A stretch of 64,000 nucleotides of DNA from Escherichia phage vB_EcoM_G4507: the sequence record NC_054919.1; one strand, written 5' to 3'. This document shows positions 19,715 to 63,959 of this stretch, in pieces. Under the pieces are notes generated by a model. The model made no database searches. It was given only the letters and a program-made list of their open reading frames with translations, and was not told where the DNA came from. The position numbers were made by a program, and so were the translations under genes. The stretch's first letter is position 1; every line of letters begins with the position of its first letter.

Positions 19715-21141
19715 TAAAATTTTAATTCATTTGCCAAAGCATCTAACTGAGCTCGAGCTGATTCGTTTCTTTGATAGCGATTCTGTTCAGCCTGAATCTG
19801 TTGTGAACCTGCTACTTCACTCACTTCAGTTGGAGTAGAATCTTGTTCAATTTCTACCCATTTCTGATTTCCCTTTTGAACACCCATTAAAAACTTATTC
19901 CACTTATTCTTATCGCCATATCGTGATTTGATTTGCTTAATGAGTTGTTGTTCAGCAGCTGCTAGCTCCTCGGTTTCAATGACCGCAAGCATAAAATCAG
20001 CTGTTGCTGGAAGACCAGCAGATTCTGCAATATCGCTCATGTTAACATCAGAAGAGTCCCAAGCTTGCTTACCAACCTGTGCTGCAGTCCAAAGAACAGT
20101 TTCGGTTTCAACAGCAAGAGCACGCAATTCCTCTGCAATAGCTTTAACAGTTGTGTAACTATTTTCTGAATAAACTCTAATGCGGCAAGATTTACAAATA
20201 CCTAGATAGTCGACAATAATGATTGTTGGAACAAAATTCTTCTTGAGCTTTAATTCGTTTAAAAGCGATCGAAATGTATTAGCGTCTGCTCCACCAGTAG
20301 GATACTGTTTAACGATTAAACGGCCGAGAGTAGATTTCTCACGCCATTTTTCCATTTTTCCTTTATACTCAGCGTAAGAAATATGCCCATCATCAATGTC
20401 ATCAAGAGAAACATCAAGCATATTAGCATCAATACGTTTAGCACAGACTTCTTCTGCCATTTCCATGGAAATATAAAGAACGTTATGACCAAGCTGCAAA
20501 TAATCTGCTGCTAATGAACAAAGTCCTAATGATTTACCAACGTTAACGCCAGCCATTAAAACGTTCAGTGTTCCTGTTTCAGCTCCGCCTTTAGTAATTT
20601 TATTTAGAATTTTGAGTCTAAATGGAACCTTACGAGCTTTATTCATATAAGATAGCCAGCGTGCTTCGTAGTCATCCATCCAATCATGACCAACGTAGCT
20701 ATCAAATGAAATTGATAATGCTTGACGCATGATGTCAGGAATAGCACCAACATCCGGCATTTTCTTATTTCGTTTTTCTGGAGGAAGCTCAGCATTAGTT
20801 TGAATTTCAATTATTTTAGACGTAGCATTAAACATCGCCCTTTGCTGAACATATTTTTCTGTTTCTTTTACTAACCAGCTGTGGTCTTCTGGAGAATCAG
20901 CCAGTTTTGAAATAAGTGTTTTTACACCAGAATATTCTGTTTCAGTAAATGAACTATTTTCTAATGCAACATTTAACGCATTAATAGATGGAACGCTATG
21001 GTACTCATTAACATGAGATTTAATTAATTTGAATGTATTTTTAGCTGGACCACTTTCAAAATATTCTGAATCCATATATGGCCAAACTTTTGAAAAATAA
21101 GCTTGATCAAATATAAGATGAGAAAGAATAATTTCTACCAC
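19714..21141 (-). CDS. 41: replicative DNA helicase
   Basis: 475 aa; DnaB-family Walker A GVNVGKS; matches T4 gp41. Confidence 0.93.
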   Translation of the reverse strand: MVEIILSHLIFDQAYFSKVWPYMDSEYFESGPAKNTFKLIKSHVNEYHSVPSINALNVALENSSFTETEYSGVKTLISKLADSPEDHSWLVKETEKYVQQRAMFNATSKIIEIQTNAELPPEKRNKKMPDVGAIPDIMRQALSISFDSYVGHDWMDDYEARWLSYMNKARKVPFRLKILNKITKGGAETGTLNVLMAGVNVGKSLGLCSLAADYLQLGHNVLYISMEMAEEVCAKRIDANMLDVSLDDIDDGHISYAEYKGKMEKWREKSTLGRLIVKQYPTGGADANTFRSLLNELKLKKNFVPTIIIVDYLGICKSCRIRVYSENSYTTVKAIAEELRALAVETETVLWTAAQVGKQAWDSSDVNMSDIAESAGLPATADFMLAVIETEELAAAEQQLIKQIKSRYGDKNKWNKFLMGVQKGNQKWVEIEQDSTPTEVSEVAGSQQIQAEQNRYQRNESARAQLDALANELKF

Positions 21142-31652: not shown

Positions 31653-33335
31653 TTAAACCATTACAGTAAATCGACCAACTTTCTTCATTTGAAGATGCTG
31701 ACCATATTCTTGCGGGTCATGGTCTTTATGCGAAATTATAAAAACATTAGTGTTTTTCATTGAATTTATAATATTAGCTACACCTTTAATACCTTCGGCA
31801 TCAAATGACCCATCAAACACTTCATCAAGAATTAATGTACTAATACTAACACCAGATACGATAGAAGCAATATCACGCCAAGTAAATAAAAGAGCAATAT
31901 CAATTCGTGCCTTTTCACCTTCACTAAATGAAGCATAACTAAAATCTTCACGACCACGGGATTTAATTGTCTCATTAAATTCTTCATCTAATGTAAACAC
32001 ATAATCCGCTTCCATTATTTTAAGATAATGGTTAATCTGCTTATTAAATAATGGAATGTACTTTTTAATAATAGCACCTTTAATACCAGAATCTTTGAGC
32101 ATATCAGTCAAAATTCCTCGGTGGTATTTTTCCATTACTAAATTAGTTTTTGTCTTAACAATTTTATCAAGTTCTTCTTGAAGCAATGCTATTTCATCAG
32201 CATGGTCAATAAACTCGGATGATGCTTTTTCTATAGCTGCTTTAACTTTTTTAGCTTTATCTACTGTCGTGATTAGAGATTGCTTTTTATTGCGAATATC
32301 ATTTGCCAACGACTGCTGGGTTTTAATATTATCTCGGTATTCATCAACAAGAACTTTTAAATTATCACGGTGTGTTGAAAGCTGTTCAAACGAATGCGTA
32401 CATTCAGAAACTTTATCTTTAATTTTAGAAACAACTTTATCACCGGAACTTAATTGTGACAAACAGGTTGGACATAATCCACCTTCGTGATACATATTAA
32501 TGACTTTATTATACGAGTCAATTTTTGATTTAATTAAAACTGCTTCTTGACCGATTTTATTAAATGCATCAGTCGGGTCTTCATCTAAAACAATATTAAC
32601 TAATCTTTCATTAGCTTCTTCTATTTCCGATTTTAGCGTTCTAGCTTCTTTTGCCAAATCATCATACATATTTTGAAGACGAGTAAGGTTGTCACCCGTT
32701 AATTTTTTCTGGCGTTCAACGTTATCATTATATATTTTAATTTGTTGGATAATACTATCTTTTTTAACATCAAGCACTTGGTTCTGTGAGTTTAATTCAC
32801 GTATTAGTGCTTTATTAAGCTTATCCATTTCAGCTAATGTTCCTACCTCAAGCAGGTCTTCCACAAGCTTTCTTCGCGCAGGGGTCGACAAACCCATGAA
32901 AGGGGTATACCCTGCTGTACCAAGGACAACAATCTGCTTGAAACTGGCATATGACATTCCGATAAGCTGTTCAAATTCTGCTTGGAAATCTTTACTGCTG
33001 GCAGATTCATTAAGACGTGTACCGTTAACGGTGATTTCAAAAACGTTCGGTTTTTGTCCTCTTTTGATATAGTACTTTTTCTCATCATATTCCATCCACA
33101 GTTCAACTAAAAGTTCTTTCTTATTTGTGCTGTTTATTAATTGACCTTTCTTTACATCACGAAATGGCTTGCCAAAAAGCCCAAATGTGATGGCTTCTAG
33201 CATAGTAGACTTACCACCGCCATTTCGTCCAGTAATAAGAGTTTTTTGAACCTTATCTAATTGAATGTCAATAGGATTTCCACCTACTGACATTATATTT
33301 TGATACCTAACTCGGTTTAGTTTAAAATTCTTCAC
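31653..33335 (-). CDS. 46: recombination endonuclease subunit (Rad50/SbcC-like ATPase)
   Basis: 560 aa; Walker A GRNGGGKST, coiled-coil with CPTC zinc hook, signature and Walker B at C-terminus. Confidence 0.93.
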   Translation of the reverse strand: MKNFKLNRVRYQNIMSVGGNPIDIQLDKVQKTLITGRNGGGKSTMLEAITFGLFGKPFRDVKKGQLINSTNKKELLVELWMEYDEKKYYIKRGQKPNVFEITVNGTRLNESASSKDFQAEFEQLIGMSYASFKQIVVLGTAGYTPFMGLSTPARRKLVEDLLEVGTLAEMDKLNKALIRELNSQNQVLDVKKDSIIQQIKIYNDNVERQKKLTGDNLTRLQNMYDDLAKEARTLKSEIEEANERLVNIVLDEDPTDAFNKIGQEAVLIKSKIDSYNKVINMYHEGGLCPTCLSQLSSGDKVVSKIKDKVSECTHSFEQLSTHRDNLKVLVDEYRDNIKTQQSLANDIRNKKQSLITTVDKAKKVKAAIEKASSEFIDHADEIALLQEELDKIVKTKTNLVMEKYHRGILTDMLKDSGIKGAIIKKYIPLFNKQINHYLKIMEADYVFTLDEEFNETIKSRGREDFSYASFSEGEKARIDIALLFTWRDIASIVSGVSISTLILDEVFDGSFDAEGIKGVANIINSMKNTNVFIISHKDHDPQEYGQHLQMKKVGRFTVMV

Positions 33336-41119: not shown

Positions 41120-41590
41120 TTAATCATGTTTCCACACCCCATCGGTATTTGACCAAAGTCGCTGATTATCTGATCCTCGCCACAGCTTTTTAGTCGGAAG
41201 ATTTTTCTCATACTTCCCATCAATAATAACATCAACATATTTAAGCATTTCTAGCTGTTTAATATCTTCAAACTTATATCCTGTCCACAACCAAATGCTT
41301 TTATTGGGATAAAGATTTTTTACTGTTTGAACCACAGAGTGAATCACGTCTCTGTTATCAGGATAAAGAGGGTCACCTCCGGTTATAGTTAATCCTTCTA
41401 TATAATCATTATTCAAACATTCAATTAATTGTTCTAGTGTTTCACCAGTGAATGGAATACCATTTCTAGCATTCCATGTTGATTTATTATAACACCCTTC
41501 GCATTTATGCAAACAACCTGTAACGAAAAGAACGACCCTGCAACCAGGGCCATTAACAAAATCGCAAGGATAAAATCTATCATAATTCAT
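41120..41590 (-). CDS. nrdG: anaerobic ribonucleotide reductase activating protein (radical SAM)
   Basis: 156 aa; cysteine cluster GCLHKCEGC. Confidence 0.92.
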   Translation of the reverse strand: MNYDRFYPCDFVNGPGCRVVLFVTGCLHKCEGCYNKSTWNARNGIPFTGETLEQLIECLNNDYIEGLTITGGDPLYPDNRDVIHSVVQTVKNLYPNKSIWLWTGYKFEDIKQLEMLKYVDVIIDGKYEKNLPTKKLWRGSDNQRLWSNTDGVWKHD

Positions 41591-43404
41591 TGGTGTTTAA
41601 CCCTATGCATGATTTCTTTATTTTTACCGAGATTAAATCCGCGTTCGTTTGGATTTCCCAAATAACCACATGTTCTTCTTATGGTGTTCATCTTTTTAGG
41701 ATCAGTTTCTCCACAAATAGAACAAACAAATCCGTTTTCAGTAGGAGTCATTTCATGGGTACTTCCACATGTAAAACATTTATCTACTGGCATATTAACA
41801 CCAAAATAATCTAAATGTTGTGCAGCATAATCCCATACGGCCTCAAGGCCTTTCAAGTTATTTTTCATATCAGGAAGTTCAACATAAGAAATGTGACCAC
41901 CTGTCGCAATGAAATGATATGGCGCTTCACGAGAAATCTTTTCAAACGGAGTAATATTTTCTTCTACTGAAACGTGGAAACTGTTAGTGTACCAGCCTTT
42001 ATCGGTAACATCTTTTACACTTCCATATTTTTCTGTATCAAGTTTACAGAAGCGATAACAAAGGTTTTCAGCAGGAGTAGAATACAAACTAAAAGCAAAC
42101 CCAGTTCTTTCAGTCCACTGTTTAAGACGAGCATTCATTTTAGTTAAAATTTCTCGTCCAATATCACGACCGACAAGAATATTCAATTCGTGAATACCAA
42201 TGTATCCTAGAGACACTGAACTTCTGCCATTTTTAAATAACTCAATTATATCGTCATCAGGTTTAAGACGAACCCCGAATGCACCTTCTTGGTAAAGAAT
42301 AGGAGCAACAGTTGCTTTAACTCCTTTTAAGGAACTAATTCTACACATCAAAGCTTCAAAACACAAATCCATTCGCTCATTGAACAATTCGATAAATTTC
42401 TGTTCATTGAACTGTGTTCCAATATAAGAATCTAATGCGATACGAGGAAGATTCAGTGTTACAACACCGAGATTATTACGTCCATCAAGAATTTCATTAC
42501 CGGTTGAATCTTTCCACACACTCAAAAAACTGCGGCAACCCATTGGAGAAACAGGAATAGATGAGCCGGTGATAGCTTTATTGTTCTTAGCTGAAATAAT
42601 ATCAGGATACATTCTTTTGCTTGCGCACTCTAAAGCAAGCTGTTTAATATCATAGTTCGGATCGTCTTTATAAAGATTAACACCTTCTTCAACAAACATA
42701 ACAAGCTTAGGGAAAATAGGAGTTATCCCATCACGACCAAGACCTTTAATACGATTTTTCAGAATTGCTTTCTGAATCATTCGTTCAGTCCAGTCAGTTC
42801 CTGTACCAAATGTAATTGTTACAAAAGGTGTTTGTCCGTTTGAACTAAAGAGAGTATTTACTTCATATTCATAAGCTTGGAATGCATCGTATACGTCTTT
42901 TTCTGTTTTAGACTGGGCATAATTCAACGCATCAGTGATTTGCCATTTTTCTGCATCCTCAATATGTTTTGCATAGGTGCGTTTAACATAAGGAGAAAGT
43001 ACTTTATCTACATTCGCAAAAGTCGTTCCGCCATATTGATGGGAAGCAACCTGTGCAGTAATTTGCGCCATAATTGCAGTAGCAACTCCAATTGATTTAG
43101 GAGTTTCAATCTGTGCATTACCTAGCTTAAATCCGTTTTCAAGCATTCCTTTTAAATCTACTAAACAACAATTAGTAAATGGAAGAGCAGGGGAATAATC
43201 AATATCGTGGAAATGGATAATTCCGCTTTCATGCGCTTTCATAATAAAAGACGGGACCATATTTTTGGCAATGTGTTTAGACACAATACCAGCCATAAGG
43301 TCCCGTTGAGTTGGAAAAACACGAGAATCTTTATTAGCATTCTCGTTTAAAAGGTCTTTATTAGTTTTATGAATCAATCCTTCAATTTCTTTTTCAATTG
43401 TCAT
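41587..43404 (-). CDS. nrdD: anaerobic ribonucleoside-triphosphate reductase (continuous ORF)
   Basis: 605 aa; C-terminal glycyl-radical motif RRTCGYLGN; zinc ribbon CFTCGS...CSICG. Confidence 0.93.
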   Translation of the reverse strand: MTIEKEIEGLIHKTNKDLLNENANKDSRVFPTQRDLMAGIVSKHIAKNMVPSFIMKAHESGIIHFHDIDYSPALPFTNCCLVDLKGMLENGFKLGNAQIETPKSIGVATAIMAQITAQVASHQYGGTTFANVDKVLSPYVKRTYAKHIEDAEKWQITDALNYAQSKTEKDVYDAFQAYEYEVNTLFSSNGQTPFVTITFGTGTDWTERMIQKAILKNRIKGLGRDGITPIFPKLVMFVEEGVNLYKDDPNYDIKQLALECASKRMYPDIISAKNNKAITGSSIPVSPMGCRSFLSVWKDSTGNEILDGRNNLGVVTLNLPRIALDSYIGTQFNEQKFIELFNERMDLCFEALMCRISSLKGVKATVAPILYQEGAFGVRLKPDDDIIELFKNGRSSVSLGYIGIHELNILVGRDIGREILTKMNARLKQWTERTGFAFSLYSTPAENLCYRFCKLDTEKYGSVKDVTDKGWYTNSFHVSVEENITPFEKISREAPYHFIATGGHISYVELPDMKNNLKGLEAVWDYAAQHLDYFGVNMPVDKCFTCGSTHEMTPTENGFVCSICGETDPKKMNTIRRTCGYLGNPNERGFNLGKNKEIMHRVKHQ

Positions 43405-44402: not shown

Positions 44403-44525
44403 GTCCCATCTCCATATCAATTAAGTCATTTATCGTTGGTTCATTATATACTGTTTCTTCATCAGTGTAAACCGGTTCTTCCGGCTCTGGCTCTACAGTT
44501 TCCCATCTAGCCGCCCACCAAGGTT

Positions 44526-44846
44526 TTATAGCGTAATCCATTCTCTTACTGTCTGAGTTACTACACGTTCTCGAAGCTCAACCAGTTCAACGGTAGGAAC
44601 TGCATAATACCAGTCAGAATGGTAAGAACCTGAGCGAGATTCATTTACGGAAACATATACGTAGTGTTTTGGGCTAAAGTAAATTACTCGACGATATTGG
44701 CATTTGCCTTGTTGAGTCCATTCTTCGGATTCAATCGGAATAAGATAGTCGGAAAAATCGAAATCATAGTTTTCCGAAAATGCATCATGGTCTTCAATAA
44801 TTTCGCTCAGAACTGCATCAACATCTAATTTATTTTCAGTATTCAT
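44526..44846 (-). CDS. hypothetical protein
   Basis: 106-aa ORF. Confidence 0.55.
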   Translation of the reverse strand: MNTENKLDVDAVLSEIIEDHDAFSENYDFDFSDYLIPIESEEWTQQGKCQYRRVIYFSPKHYVYVSVNESRSGSYHSDWYYAVPTVELVELRERVVTQTVREWITL

Positions 44847-60796: not shown

Positions 60797-61045
60797 CTAT
60801 TCAAGACGCTGCGTATAGTAAGCAATTTCATCTTCTTCGAGACAGTCCTGTGAATCTTCTTTAAGATAACGTGCATAGTCCTGAAAAGCTTTACGGACTA
60901 CTTCCTGGAAGTCATCAAGACTTTGAATTTTCTTAGGAGCGGCAGATACACGACGAGGTGCAGTATAATACTCATAACCAAACCCTGCACTTAATTGAGC
61001 CATTAGTATTTTTCCTCTGGTTGGAACACTGCACGACAAGCCCAC
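60797..61045 (-). CDS. hypothetical protein (vs.3-like)
   Basis: 82-aa ORF. Confidence 0.5.
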
Positions 61046-61305
61046 ATACTGGCTTCTTTGAGTTTCGTTTTAGCAATAGTTAACTGATCGAGGCTTTCAG
61101 CATAATTCTTCGCGAGTTCATCATCTTCACAGCTATCAAATGCTTCCCAAAATTCATCGTATAAAGCATCAAAGATAAGTCCTAAACGAACTTCAGCGTC
61201 TTTGATAGCATTCACTTTACTGATTTTCTCTTCGGTATGCGGCTTATAACCCTTAATATCTTCAATCATATTTGACTTCCTCACCAGTACATAAATCATA
61301 TTCAA
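61003..61305 (-). CDS. hypothetical helical protein (vs.4-like); start uncertain
   Basis: 100-aa track ORF overlapping upstream gene. Confidence 0.5.
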
Positions 61306-61483
61306 CTAAACGAATAGGTTCATGAATGCCATATCCCTGAACAGAAATTTCTGTCGTGGGATAAATTCCATCAATATCACCCATATTCCAGGCTTCATTA
61401 AATTGCTGTTCGCCTGAATTACTAAACCACTCGGCGAAAGCATTTAGCACATCTTCAGAACCTTCAATAATTATCTTTGCCAT
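61262..61483 (-). CDS. hypothetical protein (vs.5-like)
   Basis: 73-aa ORF. Confidence 0.5.
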   Translation of the reverse strand: MAKIIIEGSEDVLNAFAEWFSNSGEQQFNEAWNMGDIDGIYPTTEISVQGYGIHEPIRLVEYDLCTGEEVKYD

Positions 61484-61845
61484 TACAAACTCTCGGTGAA
61501 GGTACGAGCGATAACGTCGCGCTGCTGTTCCGGAGTCAGAGAGTTAAAGCGAACTGCATAACCGGATACACGGATGGTCAGCTGCGGATATTTTTCCGGA
61601 TGCTTAACTGCATCTTCCAGAGTTTCACGACGCAGAACGTTAACGTTCAGGTGTTGACCACCTTCAATTTTAACTGTAGGTTGTGTTTCAATTTCAATTT
61701 CACGGGCATGCAAACCGTAGAAAATTTCCGGGTCTACAAAAGAGTCCTCTTTAAAGGTTTTAGAGACAATAATTCGTGCTTGAATACCATCTTCAAAATA
61801 AATAGTACCTTTATGTGTGCCTTCAAGAATTTGATATGCTTTCAT
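61483..61845 (-). CDS. autonomous glycyl-radical cofactor (GrcA/YfiD-like; T4 Y06I-like)
   Basis: 120 aa; C-terminal ~60 aa including [31 protein letters not shown] match E. coli GrcA as recalled; 3' half markedly GC-richer than flanks. Confidence 0.8.
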
Positions 61846-61852
61846 ATAAACC

Positions 61853-62182
61853 TCAATTAGAAAATAAATTTATCCAAGATTGTTCTTTAATTAAAAACGG
61901 CTCAGAATCATATGCCATTAAACTTTGCGTAATTAATCCTTTAAAAGGTCCATCAATAAATTCCATGGTAAAATATGGAATTTTATTCATTAGCCGTGCA
62001 TTAGGAGCAGTACATAAAACTCTGCATCCTTTGAATACACCTTTTTGTAATTTGTATTGCTTGGGATAAAATTCGCTCAAAATGTTATTATTTGCTAAAA
62101 TTTCAAAATGATTCACCAATTTATTTTTAATAGTTTTTGGCGAAAAATAAAGATATTCGAAAAGTTGCGTATCTGTCATCAT
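61853..62182 (-). CDS. hypothetical protein
   Basis: Start at MMTDTQ giving ATGA overlap with upstream gene. Confidence 0.5.
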
Positions 62183-62721
62183 TGCATTCCAATTACGAAA
62201 AACTGCGGACGAGTAATACCACCAATACAGCATTTACTATTGCAGCAATATTGCACAGTTTCAATATGAATATCGTAAATTTTATCCATATCAGGAGATT
62301 TAACAGGCTCATCGATTATATACAAAATTCGAGAAAGCGATAAACCTCTGAACTTGCTACCTCTATTACCAACAAAACTACGGACAGAATCAGTAAATAA
62401 ACGGAATCGAATATCATCGCTAGAATAACGAGAAAATTCTTTTTTAATGCGGCCCACAGAAATTTTAGCGTAAGCTGAAGTATTAGAAAGAACAATAACT
62501 GTTCCACCATCATACAACCAATTAGCGGCAAAATTAGTTGCTGCAGTTGATTTACCGGATTGTCTGCCACCATCTAAACGAAGTGTACAATATTCTTTAA
62601 ATAAATACGACGAATCAGGTACATAAAATCCACTATTACAAATTTCTTCTACTCTAGCGTCAGAATGGTGTGTAAAAGCATTCATCAGGGATAGATAAGG
62701 ACCAGTTAAAAATGTTCTCAT
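62179..62721 (-). CDS. small P-loop NTPase
   Basis: ~180 aa from MRTFLTGPY; Walker A GGRQSGKST, Walker B ILYIIDEP; Cys-rich C-terminus. Confidence 0.55.
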   Translation of the reverse strand: MRTFLTGPYLSLMNAFTHHSDARVEEICNSGFYVPDSSYLFKEYCTLRLDGGRQSGKSTAATNFAANWLYDGGTVIVLSNTSAYAKISVGRIKKEFSRYSSDDIRFRLFTDSVRSFVGNRGSKFRGLSLSRILYIIDEPVKSPDMDKIYDIHIETVQYCCNSKCCIGGITRPQFFVIGMQ

Positions 62722-62865
62722 GTTATTTCTCTTAAGGTTTTTGGGCCATTCCGTGGCGCATGAATTGTCCATTTCTGTATTTACCCATTACCGCACTTGG
62801 GCTCGACCTTATTACAGGTTGGCGGGAATCCCTCATAGAATCATGAGGTCCAGGTTGTTCCCATA

Positions 62866-63340
62866 TTATTTGAACGATTTAACGTACTGAATAGAACCTT
62901 TACTATTTACAAAGGCAATTTTACCATTTTTATTATACATGGTAGCAGTACGCTGATAGCCATAAGTTTGCTTACCAGATTGATAACCAACTAATGCAAA
63001 ATTATCTTCACCCATTTTATTCTGTTTAGCGCGAATGCGTTCATGACCATGTGCCATAAGAACCTTAGCATCACCAGTTACAATGGATCGACGAGTTTTT
63101 TCATCTTCAACTGTATTAACAAAGTCGTCAAATGAATCAAATTTAGCATGAGATTTATTATACAGTTTTCCATCTACTGCATAATTATATCCCTGTACAT
63201 CCATCTCAACTTCTGTACCATCATCCAATACAGCAGTAATTTTCTGTCCTTTTTTTAAATTTCAAAAGATCAGTAAAAGATTCAGCAATAATTTGAGAAT
63301 TAATAGCTGCTTCAGTGATAAATTCTTGATATGTTTTCAT
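62866..63340 (-). pseudogene. internal-protein (ip)-like gene interrupted by +1 frameshift at an A7 tract
   Basis: ATG at 63340 encodes MKTYQEFITEAAINSQIIAESFTDLLKFKK then hits a stop after the A7 run (63250..63256); remaining 120 codons continue in +1 frame; A6 would give one ~158-aa ORF. Confidence 0.55.
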
Positions 63341-63394
63341 GTGTTTCCTTTAAATATTTTAATTAGTAATTTGTCTCTTCAAGCAACTGTGAAT

Positions 63395-63424
63395 ATACTA
63401 TCACAATTCTAGGAGAAAGTAAAC
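63395..63424 (-). promoter_or_regulatory. early-type promoter upstream of ip-like gene (GTTTAC -35, TAGTAT -10)
   Basis: Minus-strand motif. Confidence 0.5.
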
Positions 63425-63428
63425 AACT

Positions 63429-63959
<531 letters not shown>

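Follow-up and report, generated by a model that had tools for sequence, protein, structure and literature searches.

The mosaic gene vs.6 of Escherichia phage vB_EcoM_G4507: a phage grcA homologue with a host-derived folded-domain half

The vs.6 locus

The gene vs.6 of T4-like phages encodes a small protein related to GrcA (YfiD) of Escherichia coli, and it is described here from Escherichia phage vB_EcoM_G4507 (NC_054919.1), of which a stretch of 64,000 nucleotides (nt), referred to as the window, was analysed. The window belongs to a Tequatrovirus, with T4 lysozyme, regB, vs.1 and their neighbours in T4 order. Within vs.6, the half that encodes the folded glycyl-radical domain is derived from the host gene grcA, and comparison with other phages and hosts points to repeated replacement of this half. 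The features of the locus are listed below, with guanine-plus-cytosine content abbreviated as GC and that of third codon positions as GC3.

61483..61845, minus strand: vs.6/Y06I orthologue, a stand-alone GrcA-like glycyl-radical protein (open reading frame, Pfam, PHROG, PDB 6OWR, identity to T4)
61851..61854, minus strand: Shine-Dalgarno sequence GAGG, 5 nt 5' of the vs.6 ATG, overlapping the stop codon of the upstream gene vs.7 (sequence reading)
61668..61845, minus strand: 5' half of vs.6, GC 0.333 and GC3 0.200, present in 812 Tevenvirinae records
61499..61667, minus strand: host-derived tract, a 169-nt exact copy of E. coli grcA nt 200-368 (GrcA codons 67/68-123; longest exact match)
61483..61498, minus strand: 3'-terminal patch, the last 13 coding nt and the stop codon (codon table, alignment)
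61262..61483, minus strand: vs.5 orthologue, overlapping the end of vs.6 and forming the downstream limit of host homology (list of open reading frames, phrog_1986 at 9.6e-44, annotation of T4, RB69 and Shfl2)

A sequence-only reading of the window had placed a GrcA/YfiD-like gene at 61483-61845, which coincides exactly with an open reading frame of 120 amino acids (aa) containing the motif RVSGYAV. The protein matches Pfam Gly_radical (PF01228) at E = 2.2e-18, phrog_1209 over its full length (1-120 of 121, 5.4e-63) and the GrcA structure PDB 6OWR at 4.6e-42, with a phmmer alignment spanning residues 22-120, while residues 697-759 of pyruvate formate-lyase (PFL) align to it at 4.8e-26. The claim that about 60 C-terminal residues match E. 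coli GrcA proved literally true, as the last 60 residues (E61 to L120) are identical to GrcA 68-127 at 60 of 60 positions. The protein therefore carries a PFL-type glycyl-radical domain with RVSGYAV, and it is a small stand-alone product, with its own GAGG site, start and stop, encoded between vs.7 and vs.5; the vs.6 stop codon shares letters with the vs.5 ATG (TAATG).

The same reading had cited the T4 protein Y06I as a described homologue. It exists, but it is more than a homologue: T4 vs.6 (UniProt Y06I_BPT4) is the orthologue of the same gene, identical at 355/363 nt and 118/120 aa, with T54P and R73H in T4 as the two differing residues and the same neighbours in the order vs.7-vs.6-vs.5-vs.4-vs.3-regB. 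This gene order is shared by T4, RB69, Shfl2 and phage ECP52, whose gene is 100% identical to that of the window and is annotated grcA. The full-length match and the kept position in the vs/regB early-gene cluster place the protein in PHROG 1209, and the comparison of T4-like genomes by Nolan et al. 2006 (PMC1524935) noted vs.6 as conserved in every one of them. Against NCBIfam TIGR04365 (InterPro IPR011140), the protein scores 154.6 bits, below the equivalog cut-off of 170 bits and the 233.9 bits of E. coli GrcA, because its N-terminal half has diverged; RefSeq names T4 vs.6 'GrcA' despite the sub-cut-off score of the window orthologue. The window protein is thus best regarded as belonging to a phage subfamily of GrcA. 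Scans for promoters and terminators around vs.6 were uninformative (12 promoter-like sites, 10.9 expected), and no tRNA genes were found in the 64-kb window.

The N-terminal third had been read as phage-specific, which holds for the first ~21 residues, as they cannot be aligned, but not for residues 22-60, which align to GrcA 28-67 at 35% identity (E = 2e-6, pairwise). The N-terminal half is thus homologous to the half that is disordered and binds cleaved PFL in GrcA, and the whole gene is a grcA homologue. The two proteins share the C-terminal 60 residues, encoded with 169 identical nt, and the architecture of a stand-alone PFL-type domain; they differ in that the window protein is seven residues shorter, is just 35% identical in its N-terminal half and is expressed from a phage operon rather than from the host grcA promoter. 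Judged by sequence, the 5' half of vs.6 is ancient and diverged, and the 3' half essentially host DNA. Residues 1-60 of YfiD/GrcA form a disordered segment that contributes to the binding of cleaved PFL, whereas residues 61-127 form the folded domain that replaces PFL 693-759 (PMC8683613). Since GrcA codons 67/68-123 fall within the folded domain 61-127, the host tract is essentially the folded spare part.

The host-derived tract and its limits

Searches by blastn against 5,426 complete E. coli genomes aligned gene nt 179-363 (61483..61667) with chromosomal grcA in every genome, at 97.3% identity over 185 nt. The 169-nt exact run within this match encodes the folded glycyl-radical domain, including RVSGYAV, and the five differences from grcA are all synonymous and all lie within the last five codons. 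The 5' junction is sharp, at gene nt 179 (window position 61667), where identity changes in a step within 2 nt; just upstream of it only 27 of 60 nt agree with grcA without gaps, and after the stop codon, beyond which no host similarity is found, 11 of 44. Over 183 nt, grcA is identical at 178 positions, pflB at 144 and tdcE at 134. The latter two were rejected as donors on these counts, and the alignment to grcA and pflB that the sequence-only reading had proposed as a check thus gave both a breakpoint and a donor, grcA. When the whole window was compared with the E. coli genomes by megablast, the grcA tract was the sole match, accompanied by an echo of the same tract in pflB at about 80%.

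Composition and codon usage mark the same boundary. The last 60 codons (61486..61665), referred to below as the module, have a GC of 0.506, compared with 0.333 in the first 60 codons and 0.343 in the window (standard deviation 0.039 in 180-nt windows), which places the module first among 63,821 sliding 180-nt windows (z = 4.1). GC3 is 0.467 in the module, 0.200 in the 5' half and 0.240 +/- 0.041 in 49 long open reading frames, and only 11 of 11,154 in-frame 60-codon windows reach the module's value. The gene therefore contains an intragenic compositional break, with GC rising from 0.333 to 0.506 and GC3 from 0.200 to 0.467 across gene nt 179. Its codons are host-like: CTG serves for 5 of 6 leucines (8% in phage genes), CCG for 3 of 3 prolines (17%) and ATC for 2 of 2 isoleucines (15%). 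The GC-rich 3' half had been estimated at approximately 61490..61690, close to the exact match and to the blastn match, and the contrast with flanking phage DNA that was expected from a sliding GC and codon-usage comparison is strong. Because composition and codons differ from the phage and nucleotide similarity to the host exists, capture of the 3' half from the host is supported. The three next GC-richest 180-nt stretches (19946..20125, 44459..44638 and 32852..33031) have GC of 0.467-0.478; they show no megablast similarity to any E. coli genome and are therefore not further host tracts.

The direction of transfer follows from the setting of the tract on either side. In E. coli grcA, the module has GC 0.50 and GC3 0.43 and the remainder of the gene 0.47 and 0.42, so that the tract is ordinary in grcA and an extreme outlier in the phage, and transfer went from host to phage. 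The opposite direction, with the 3' half of host grcA coming from phage DNA, has a precedent in that Sullivan et al. 2006 (PMC1484495) report recombination signatures of psbA/psbD from phage to host as well as from host to phage, and single shared polymorphisms do not reveal direction. It is nevertheless very improbable, given not only this composition but also the presence of grcA with the same module in all E. coli genomes searched and across 80 species, and the lack of the phage-type 3' patch in any of the 5,426 E. coli genomes.

At its 3' end the tract passes into phage-type sequence, and the mix of host and phage letters varies among T4, OES_C-2, Shfl2 and RB69. The last five codons read as follows.

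E. coli grcA: TTT ACT GAA AGC CTG
OES_C-2 and Shfl2: TTT ACT GAG AGC CTG
T4: TTT ACT GAA AGT TTG
Window: TTC ACC GAG AGT TTG
RB69: TTT ACT GAG AGT CTA

The 3' endpoint of the host-like tract accordingly differs between T4, where host TTT ACT GAA is followed by phage AGT TTG, and the window. Synonymous changes in the patch, such as GAA to GAG, might be kept as a ribosome-binding site for the overlapping vs.5, as GAG(A/G) stands at the position of this site in most phages and GAGG in Jiaodaviruses; this side idea stays unproven because T4 itself retains the host GAA.

The quantitative polymerase chain reaction (PCR) primers for Straboviridae of PMC12845203 target vs.6, at 61483..61502 and 61773..61794. 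The reverse primer is the exact reverse complement of the window's 3' patch, a sequence with 3 mismatches to T4 and 5 to host grcA, and the forward primer sits in the phage-specific 5' half, so the pair should not cross-amplify the host.

Phage and host copies compared

GrcA-like stand-alone genes are widespread in unrelated virulent phages, and 1,509 phage records match the E. coli module. Carriers include T5-like phages (L126-L152, of which L129 has 121,750 bp), jumbo phages of 345-357 kb (L109, L111 and L112) and Krischvirus (L179 and L180). Phages of ~150 kb from human oral metagenomes (L103-L108) carry copies closest to Haemophilus grcA (0.81-0.83). The full-length grcA on a 19-kb IMG/VR contig (L113) is of bacterial type, with 91% identity to the Yersinia gene, and probably stems from host DNA or the flank of a prophage, not from a phage. 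The comparison set comprised grcA from 80 bacterial species, Klebsiella pneumoniae grcA and about 100 phage copies, with detailed analyses of about 20 phages and a handful of host alleles. The grcA of K. aerogenes LR134122 (L169), which has an indel and a shortened annotation of its coding sequence, was left out of codon-based comparisons, and the record CP125156.1, labelled a K. pneumoniae 'plasmid', measures 5.37 Mb and hence is a chromosome. In the 5' half of vs.6, KPV15 (L110) has a 1-nt frameshift and OES_C-2 (L177) an in-frame 6-nt deletion.

Modules of Tequatrovirus and Mosigvirus are 0.967-0.994 identical to E. coli, compared with 0.89-0.91 to Citrobacter, 0.86-0.88 to K. pneumoniae and 0.81-0.83 to Salmonella; E. 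coli grcA itself is 0.93 identical to that of Citrobacter and 0.88 to that of K. pneumoniae. The same protein module occurs in T5-like, Krischvirus, Karamvirus, Slopek-like, RB43-like and jumbo phages, but there the coding DNA is only 65-83% identical to any host grcA sampled and its GC lies close to that of the phage concerned; the nucleotides themselves are thus unconstrained. This bears on the possibility that no DNA was transferred at all and that protein constraint, combined with translation-driven codon convergence or purifying selection on nucleotides, produced the likeness. The 60-residue module is indeed nearly invariant over Enterobacterales and Pasteurellaceae, and grcA is highly expressed in the host. 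Such convergence is nonetheless very unlikely and was rejected in view of these diverged phage copies of the same module. Furthermore, other Enterobacteriaceae with similar codon preferences are just 84-93% identical to E. coli, the identity shifts in a step, the host-like codons are not used by other genes of the window, and phage copies follow synonymous states specific to either E. coli or K. pneumoniae.

The last point emerges from Klebsiella phages. A search with K. pneumoniae grcA gave 77 phage records with 95-97% identity over nt 199/202-374, nearly all of them Klebsiella Jiaodaviruses. Their module (GC 0.55-0.58, against 0.36 upstream) has the same 5' junction as that of the coliphages, and their 5' halves are phage-type, about 72% identical to that of the window. 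At the 21 sites that separate the E. coli and K. pneumoniae modules, which include the amino-acid patch LEDAVKH versus LLDAVEH, the E. coli state is found at 19-21 in coliphages, and the K. pneumoniae state at 16-18 in Jiaodaviruses. Donors have therefore come from two host genera or more.

Over phage records, identity to the E. coli module is bimodal, with 637 records at >=95%, 8 at 90-95% and 864 at 60-90%. Uninterrupted identity with the host gene extends over 101-173 nt in the lineages with a host-like module, termed converted below, and over at most 20 nt in the others. As perfect host identity is unusual in a T4-type genome, a chimeric assembly, in which host reads entered the phage genome, was also considered. 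Its probability is negligible: the same in-frame mosaic is found in the 637 independent phage records at >=95%, the T4 reference among them, and this replication across records excludes the explanation. In addition, the junctions are in frame, and the 3' end has phage-specific changes and overlaps the next phage gene.

The two halves of the gene also have separate histories. In 35 pairwise comparisons of Tequatrovirus with Mosigvirus copies, divergence is 10.6% in the 5' half, falls to 1.7% in the module interior and reaches 17% over the last 15 nt, and fixed differences between the two genera number 10 in the 5' half and 0 in the module interior (Fisher p = 0.0019). Between the window and Karamvirus the relation is reversed, with a synonymous divergence (dS) of 0.64 in the 5' half and 1.83 in the module, which is the expectation if the module of one lineage was replaced. 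The Jiaodaviruses phiA85 and Nispero have 5' halves that differ at 0 of 180 nt and modules that differ, synonymously, at 7 of 180 (p = 0.015). Variation among Jiaodaviruses forms a reticulate pattern, with 9 of its 12 variant states also known from a host allele; it was not counted as a sign of several Klebsiella/Raoultella donors, the host sample being too thin.

Additionally, polymorphism is shared between phage and host. The natural polymorphisms of the Escherichia module lie at nt 39 (T>C), nt 12 (A>G), nt 24 (T>A) and nt 102 (C>T), and three of these four recur as 'private' variants of phage modules, with c39 in RB69, phiEC1 and L085, g12 in L085 and a24 in Shfl2 (hypergeometric p = 9e-5 for all possible variants, 2.6e-3 for synonymous variants only). 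Many E. coli genomes have a grcA to which the 175-nt tract of Shfl2 is 100.0% identical, and the tract of the window is an exact copy of a different allele. Copies of distinct alleles, shared polymorphisms and varied 3' ends thus indicate several independent exchanges with hosts rather than one capture. The sequence-only reading was right about capture from the host, with the refinement that there was more than one such event: new versions of the module entered several times, and the hosts and alleles that supplied them differed.

Origin and meaning of the mosaic

The account that we consider highly probable, on sequence comparison, is that vs.6 is an old phage homologue of grcA whose folded-domain half has been overwritten repeatedly by host DNA through homologous recombination. 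A whole grcA would have been acquired long ago by T4-like phages and would have drifted to their AT-rich composition, a state that is still seen in Karamvirus, Krischvirus, Slopek-like and RB43-like copies. In Tequatrovirus and Mosigvirus, the folded-domain half would then have been overwritten by chromosomal grcA of E. coli through gene conversion, the donor presumably being host DNA fragments that pair with replicating phage DNA during infection. The tract begins exactly at the start of homology between phage and host and ends in the last few codons before the overlapping downstream gene. The conversion would have been repeated, with different E. coli alleles entering coliphages and a K. pneumoniae-type module entering the Klebsiella Jiaodaviruses. 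Recombination is very active in T4, which rescues markers from cytosine-containing plasmid DNA with short homologies.

Several observations weigh against this account. Its evidence is wholly comparative. The 5' junction is identical in all converted lineages, while conversion of the ordinary kind should leave patches whose ends are scattered; therefore either extension of heteroduplex up to the heterology or an inherited junction is needed. Heteroduplex extension until heterology is met could produce the common junction, as could a host single strand that anneals across the homologous block and has its non-homologous flaps trimmed, or a junction that was inherited and later refreshed by full-length conversions. 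Between the window and T4, dS is alike in both halves (0.083 versus 0.071), and this roughly equal divergence means that conversion is infrequent on the time scale within Tequatrovirus. Where Yersinia was the isolation host of Tequatroviruses, or Salmonella that of one Jiaodavirus, the module is still of the E. coli or Klebsiella type. Salmonella was rejected as a third tracked host, since no phage reaches 95% identity to its grcA, and coliphages of other genera (Krischvirus, T5-like) are unconverted. Furthermore, the L085 haplotype (g12 + c39) occurs with both states together in no E. coli genome (best 99.4%), and it is either a recombinant of two alleles or includes one change that is a mutation. 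Shared variants at third codon positions could partly reflect parallel mutation.

Some of these observations also favour another history, in which a few one-off captures (one in the ancestor of Tequatrovirus and Mosigvirus, one in Jiaodaviruses) were followed by shuffling between phages without continuing input from hosts. Similar divergence of both halves within Tequatrovirus, a 5' junction that is identical across converted lineages and the retention of the lineage's module type in phages isolated on Yersinia or Salmonella are all in its favour, and the bimodal identity could merely reflect heavily sampled clades. It is unlikely, however, as Tequatrovirus and Mosigvirus have no fixed difference in the module interior against 10 in the 5' half, and exchange between phages would need endpoints that match the limits of host homology. 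Two Tequatroviruses moreover carry exact copies of two different natural E. coli alleles, three of four host polymorphisms are shared, and a pair of Jiaodaviruses whose 5' halves are the same has 7 differing sites in the module.

Repeated overwriting by host DNA could further be sustained by a homology-locked loop, in which the host gene serves as master copy, so that phage mutations are removed and the module changes type when the lineage moves to another host species. This extension is possible, though we hold it only tentatively and at somewhat less than even odds. With more than 100 nt of uninterrupted identity, each infection would give a chance of conversion by the chromosome, so that a host-like module may be converted more easily, and copies that have fallen under the homology threshold (runs <=20 nt, as in Krischvirus, Karamvirus and T5-like phages) would escape for good. 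If the loop holds, the bimodal distribution of identity would be a dynamical outcome instead of a sampling effect, and it would provide a natural, measurable rate of gene flow from host to virulent phage, maybe for other conserved host-derived genes as well. Exact matching of the host may be either selected or neutral.

The function of the protein is taken from work on T4. Like YfiD, T4 Y06I receives a glycyl radical from the PFL-activating enzyme and restores oxygen-cleaved PFL (Wagner et al. 2001, as reported in PMC8683613). By analogy, the window protein would be a GrcA-like spare part that is activated by PflA and docks into oxygen-cleaved PFL. It is a reasonable inference that the phage supplies its own GrcA because host expression is shut off and fermentative metabolism is still needed in low-oxygen habitats. 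The intact nrdD and nrdG had been taken as a sign that the phage maintains glycyl-radical enzymes. Both genes are indeed present, nrdD at 41587..43404 (minus strand) as an uninterrupted open reading frame of 605 aa (NRDD 1.4e-171, plus Gly_radical), followed by nrdG at 41120..41590 (minus strand), but the functional link is only co-occurrence, and a role in NrdD maintenance is unsupported because the module is of the PFL/GrcA type and not of the NrdD type. The window phage appears to be without the group I intron that T4 nrdD carries.

The surroundings of vs.6 differ in places from those in other phages. Two genes downstream, the vs.4 orthologue (61003..61305, minus strand) contains the Acb2/Tad1 hairpin domain (Pfam PF24729, 1.7e-19) of the anti-CBASS/anti-Thoeris sponge family, and in Jiaodaviruses and Karamviruses this gene directly follows vs.6, without an intervening vs.5. 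The interval 62179..63428 has one internal-protein-like open reading frame (62866..63228) between a vs.8-like open reading frame (62179..62772) and the lysozyme gene e (63429..63923); T4 has denV, ipII and ipIII between vs.8 and lysozyme, and denV was not seen in the interval of the window.

Both vs.6 and its biochemical role are already known, and intragenic recombination between phage and host is a known phenomenon. DNA-level identity to host grcA and the tracking of hosts and alleles were not found in the open-access literature, and earlier mention elsewhere is possible. The closest parallel is psbA/psbD of cyanophages (Zeidner et al. 2005; Sullivan et al. 2006, PMC1484495), host-derived metabolic genes in T4-like phages with patchy intragenic %G+C, segments closest to host copies and inferred exchange between phage and host. 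In vs.6, likewise, one segment is closest to the host, the segments have discordant histories, and more than one host lineage or allele is involved. However, vs.6 concerns enterobacterial T-even phages, a fermentation enzyme and the tracking of two host genera, and its tract is a single block with a fixed 5' junction at a domain boundary and 100% host identity over 169-175 nt, whereas psbA exchange was inferred statistically, in both directions, among far more diverged sequences. The grcA copies of Krischvirus, Karamvirus, Slopek-like, RB43-like, T5-like and jumbo phages share the protein architecture and the glycyl-radical module, but with 65-83% host identity and runs of <=20 nt they look like old, unrefreshed copies.

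A mechanistic parallel exists in the marker rescue of T4, which depends on UvsX and is used with insertion-substitution vectors: cytosine-containing DNA inside the cell is copied into T4 genomes as they replicate, given homology of tens to hundreds of bp, and uninterrupted identity over 101-173 nt would suffice for it. Marker rescue uses cloned phage DNA on plasmids, whereas the donor of vs.6 would be a single-copy chromosomal gene under degradation by the phage.

T-even phages are the textbook virulent phages, which break down the host's DNA and have practically no sequence in common with it, yet T4 and hundreds of its relatives carry a block of 169-185 nt taken verbatim from a host chromosomal gene. 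The mosaic also tells apart the half of GrcA that has to agree with the host, the folded domain, from the half that is free to diverge, the disordered, PFL-binding one. As grcA was chosen as a PCR marker for coliphage Straboviridae (PMC12845203), designers of primers and read classifiers need to know that half of it is host sequence. The module is a molecular record of the long-term host of a lineage, independent of the strain used for isolation. With repeated overwriting by host DNA as its probable origin, vs.6 would be an unusually clean case of ongoing gene flow from host to lytic phage through homologous recombination. It concerns T4 and E. coli, a phage-host pair more tractable than any other, in which the rate of this flow and its genetic requirements (uvsX, 46/47, denA/denB) can be measured.

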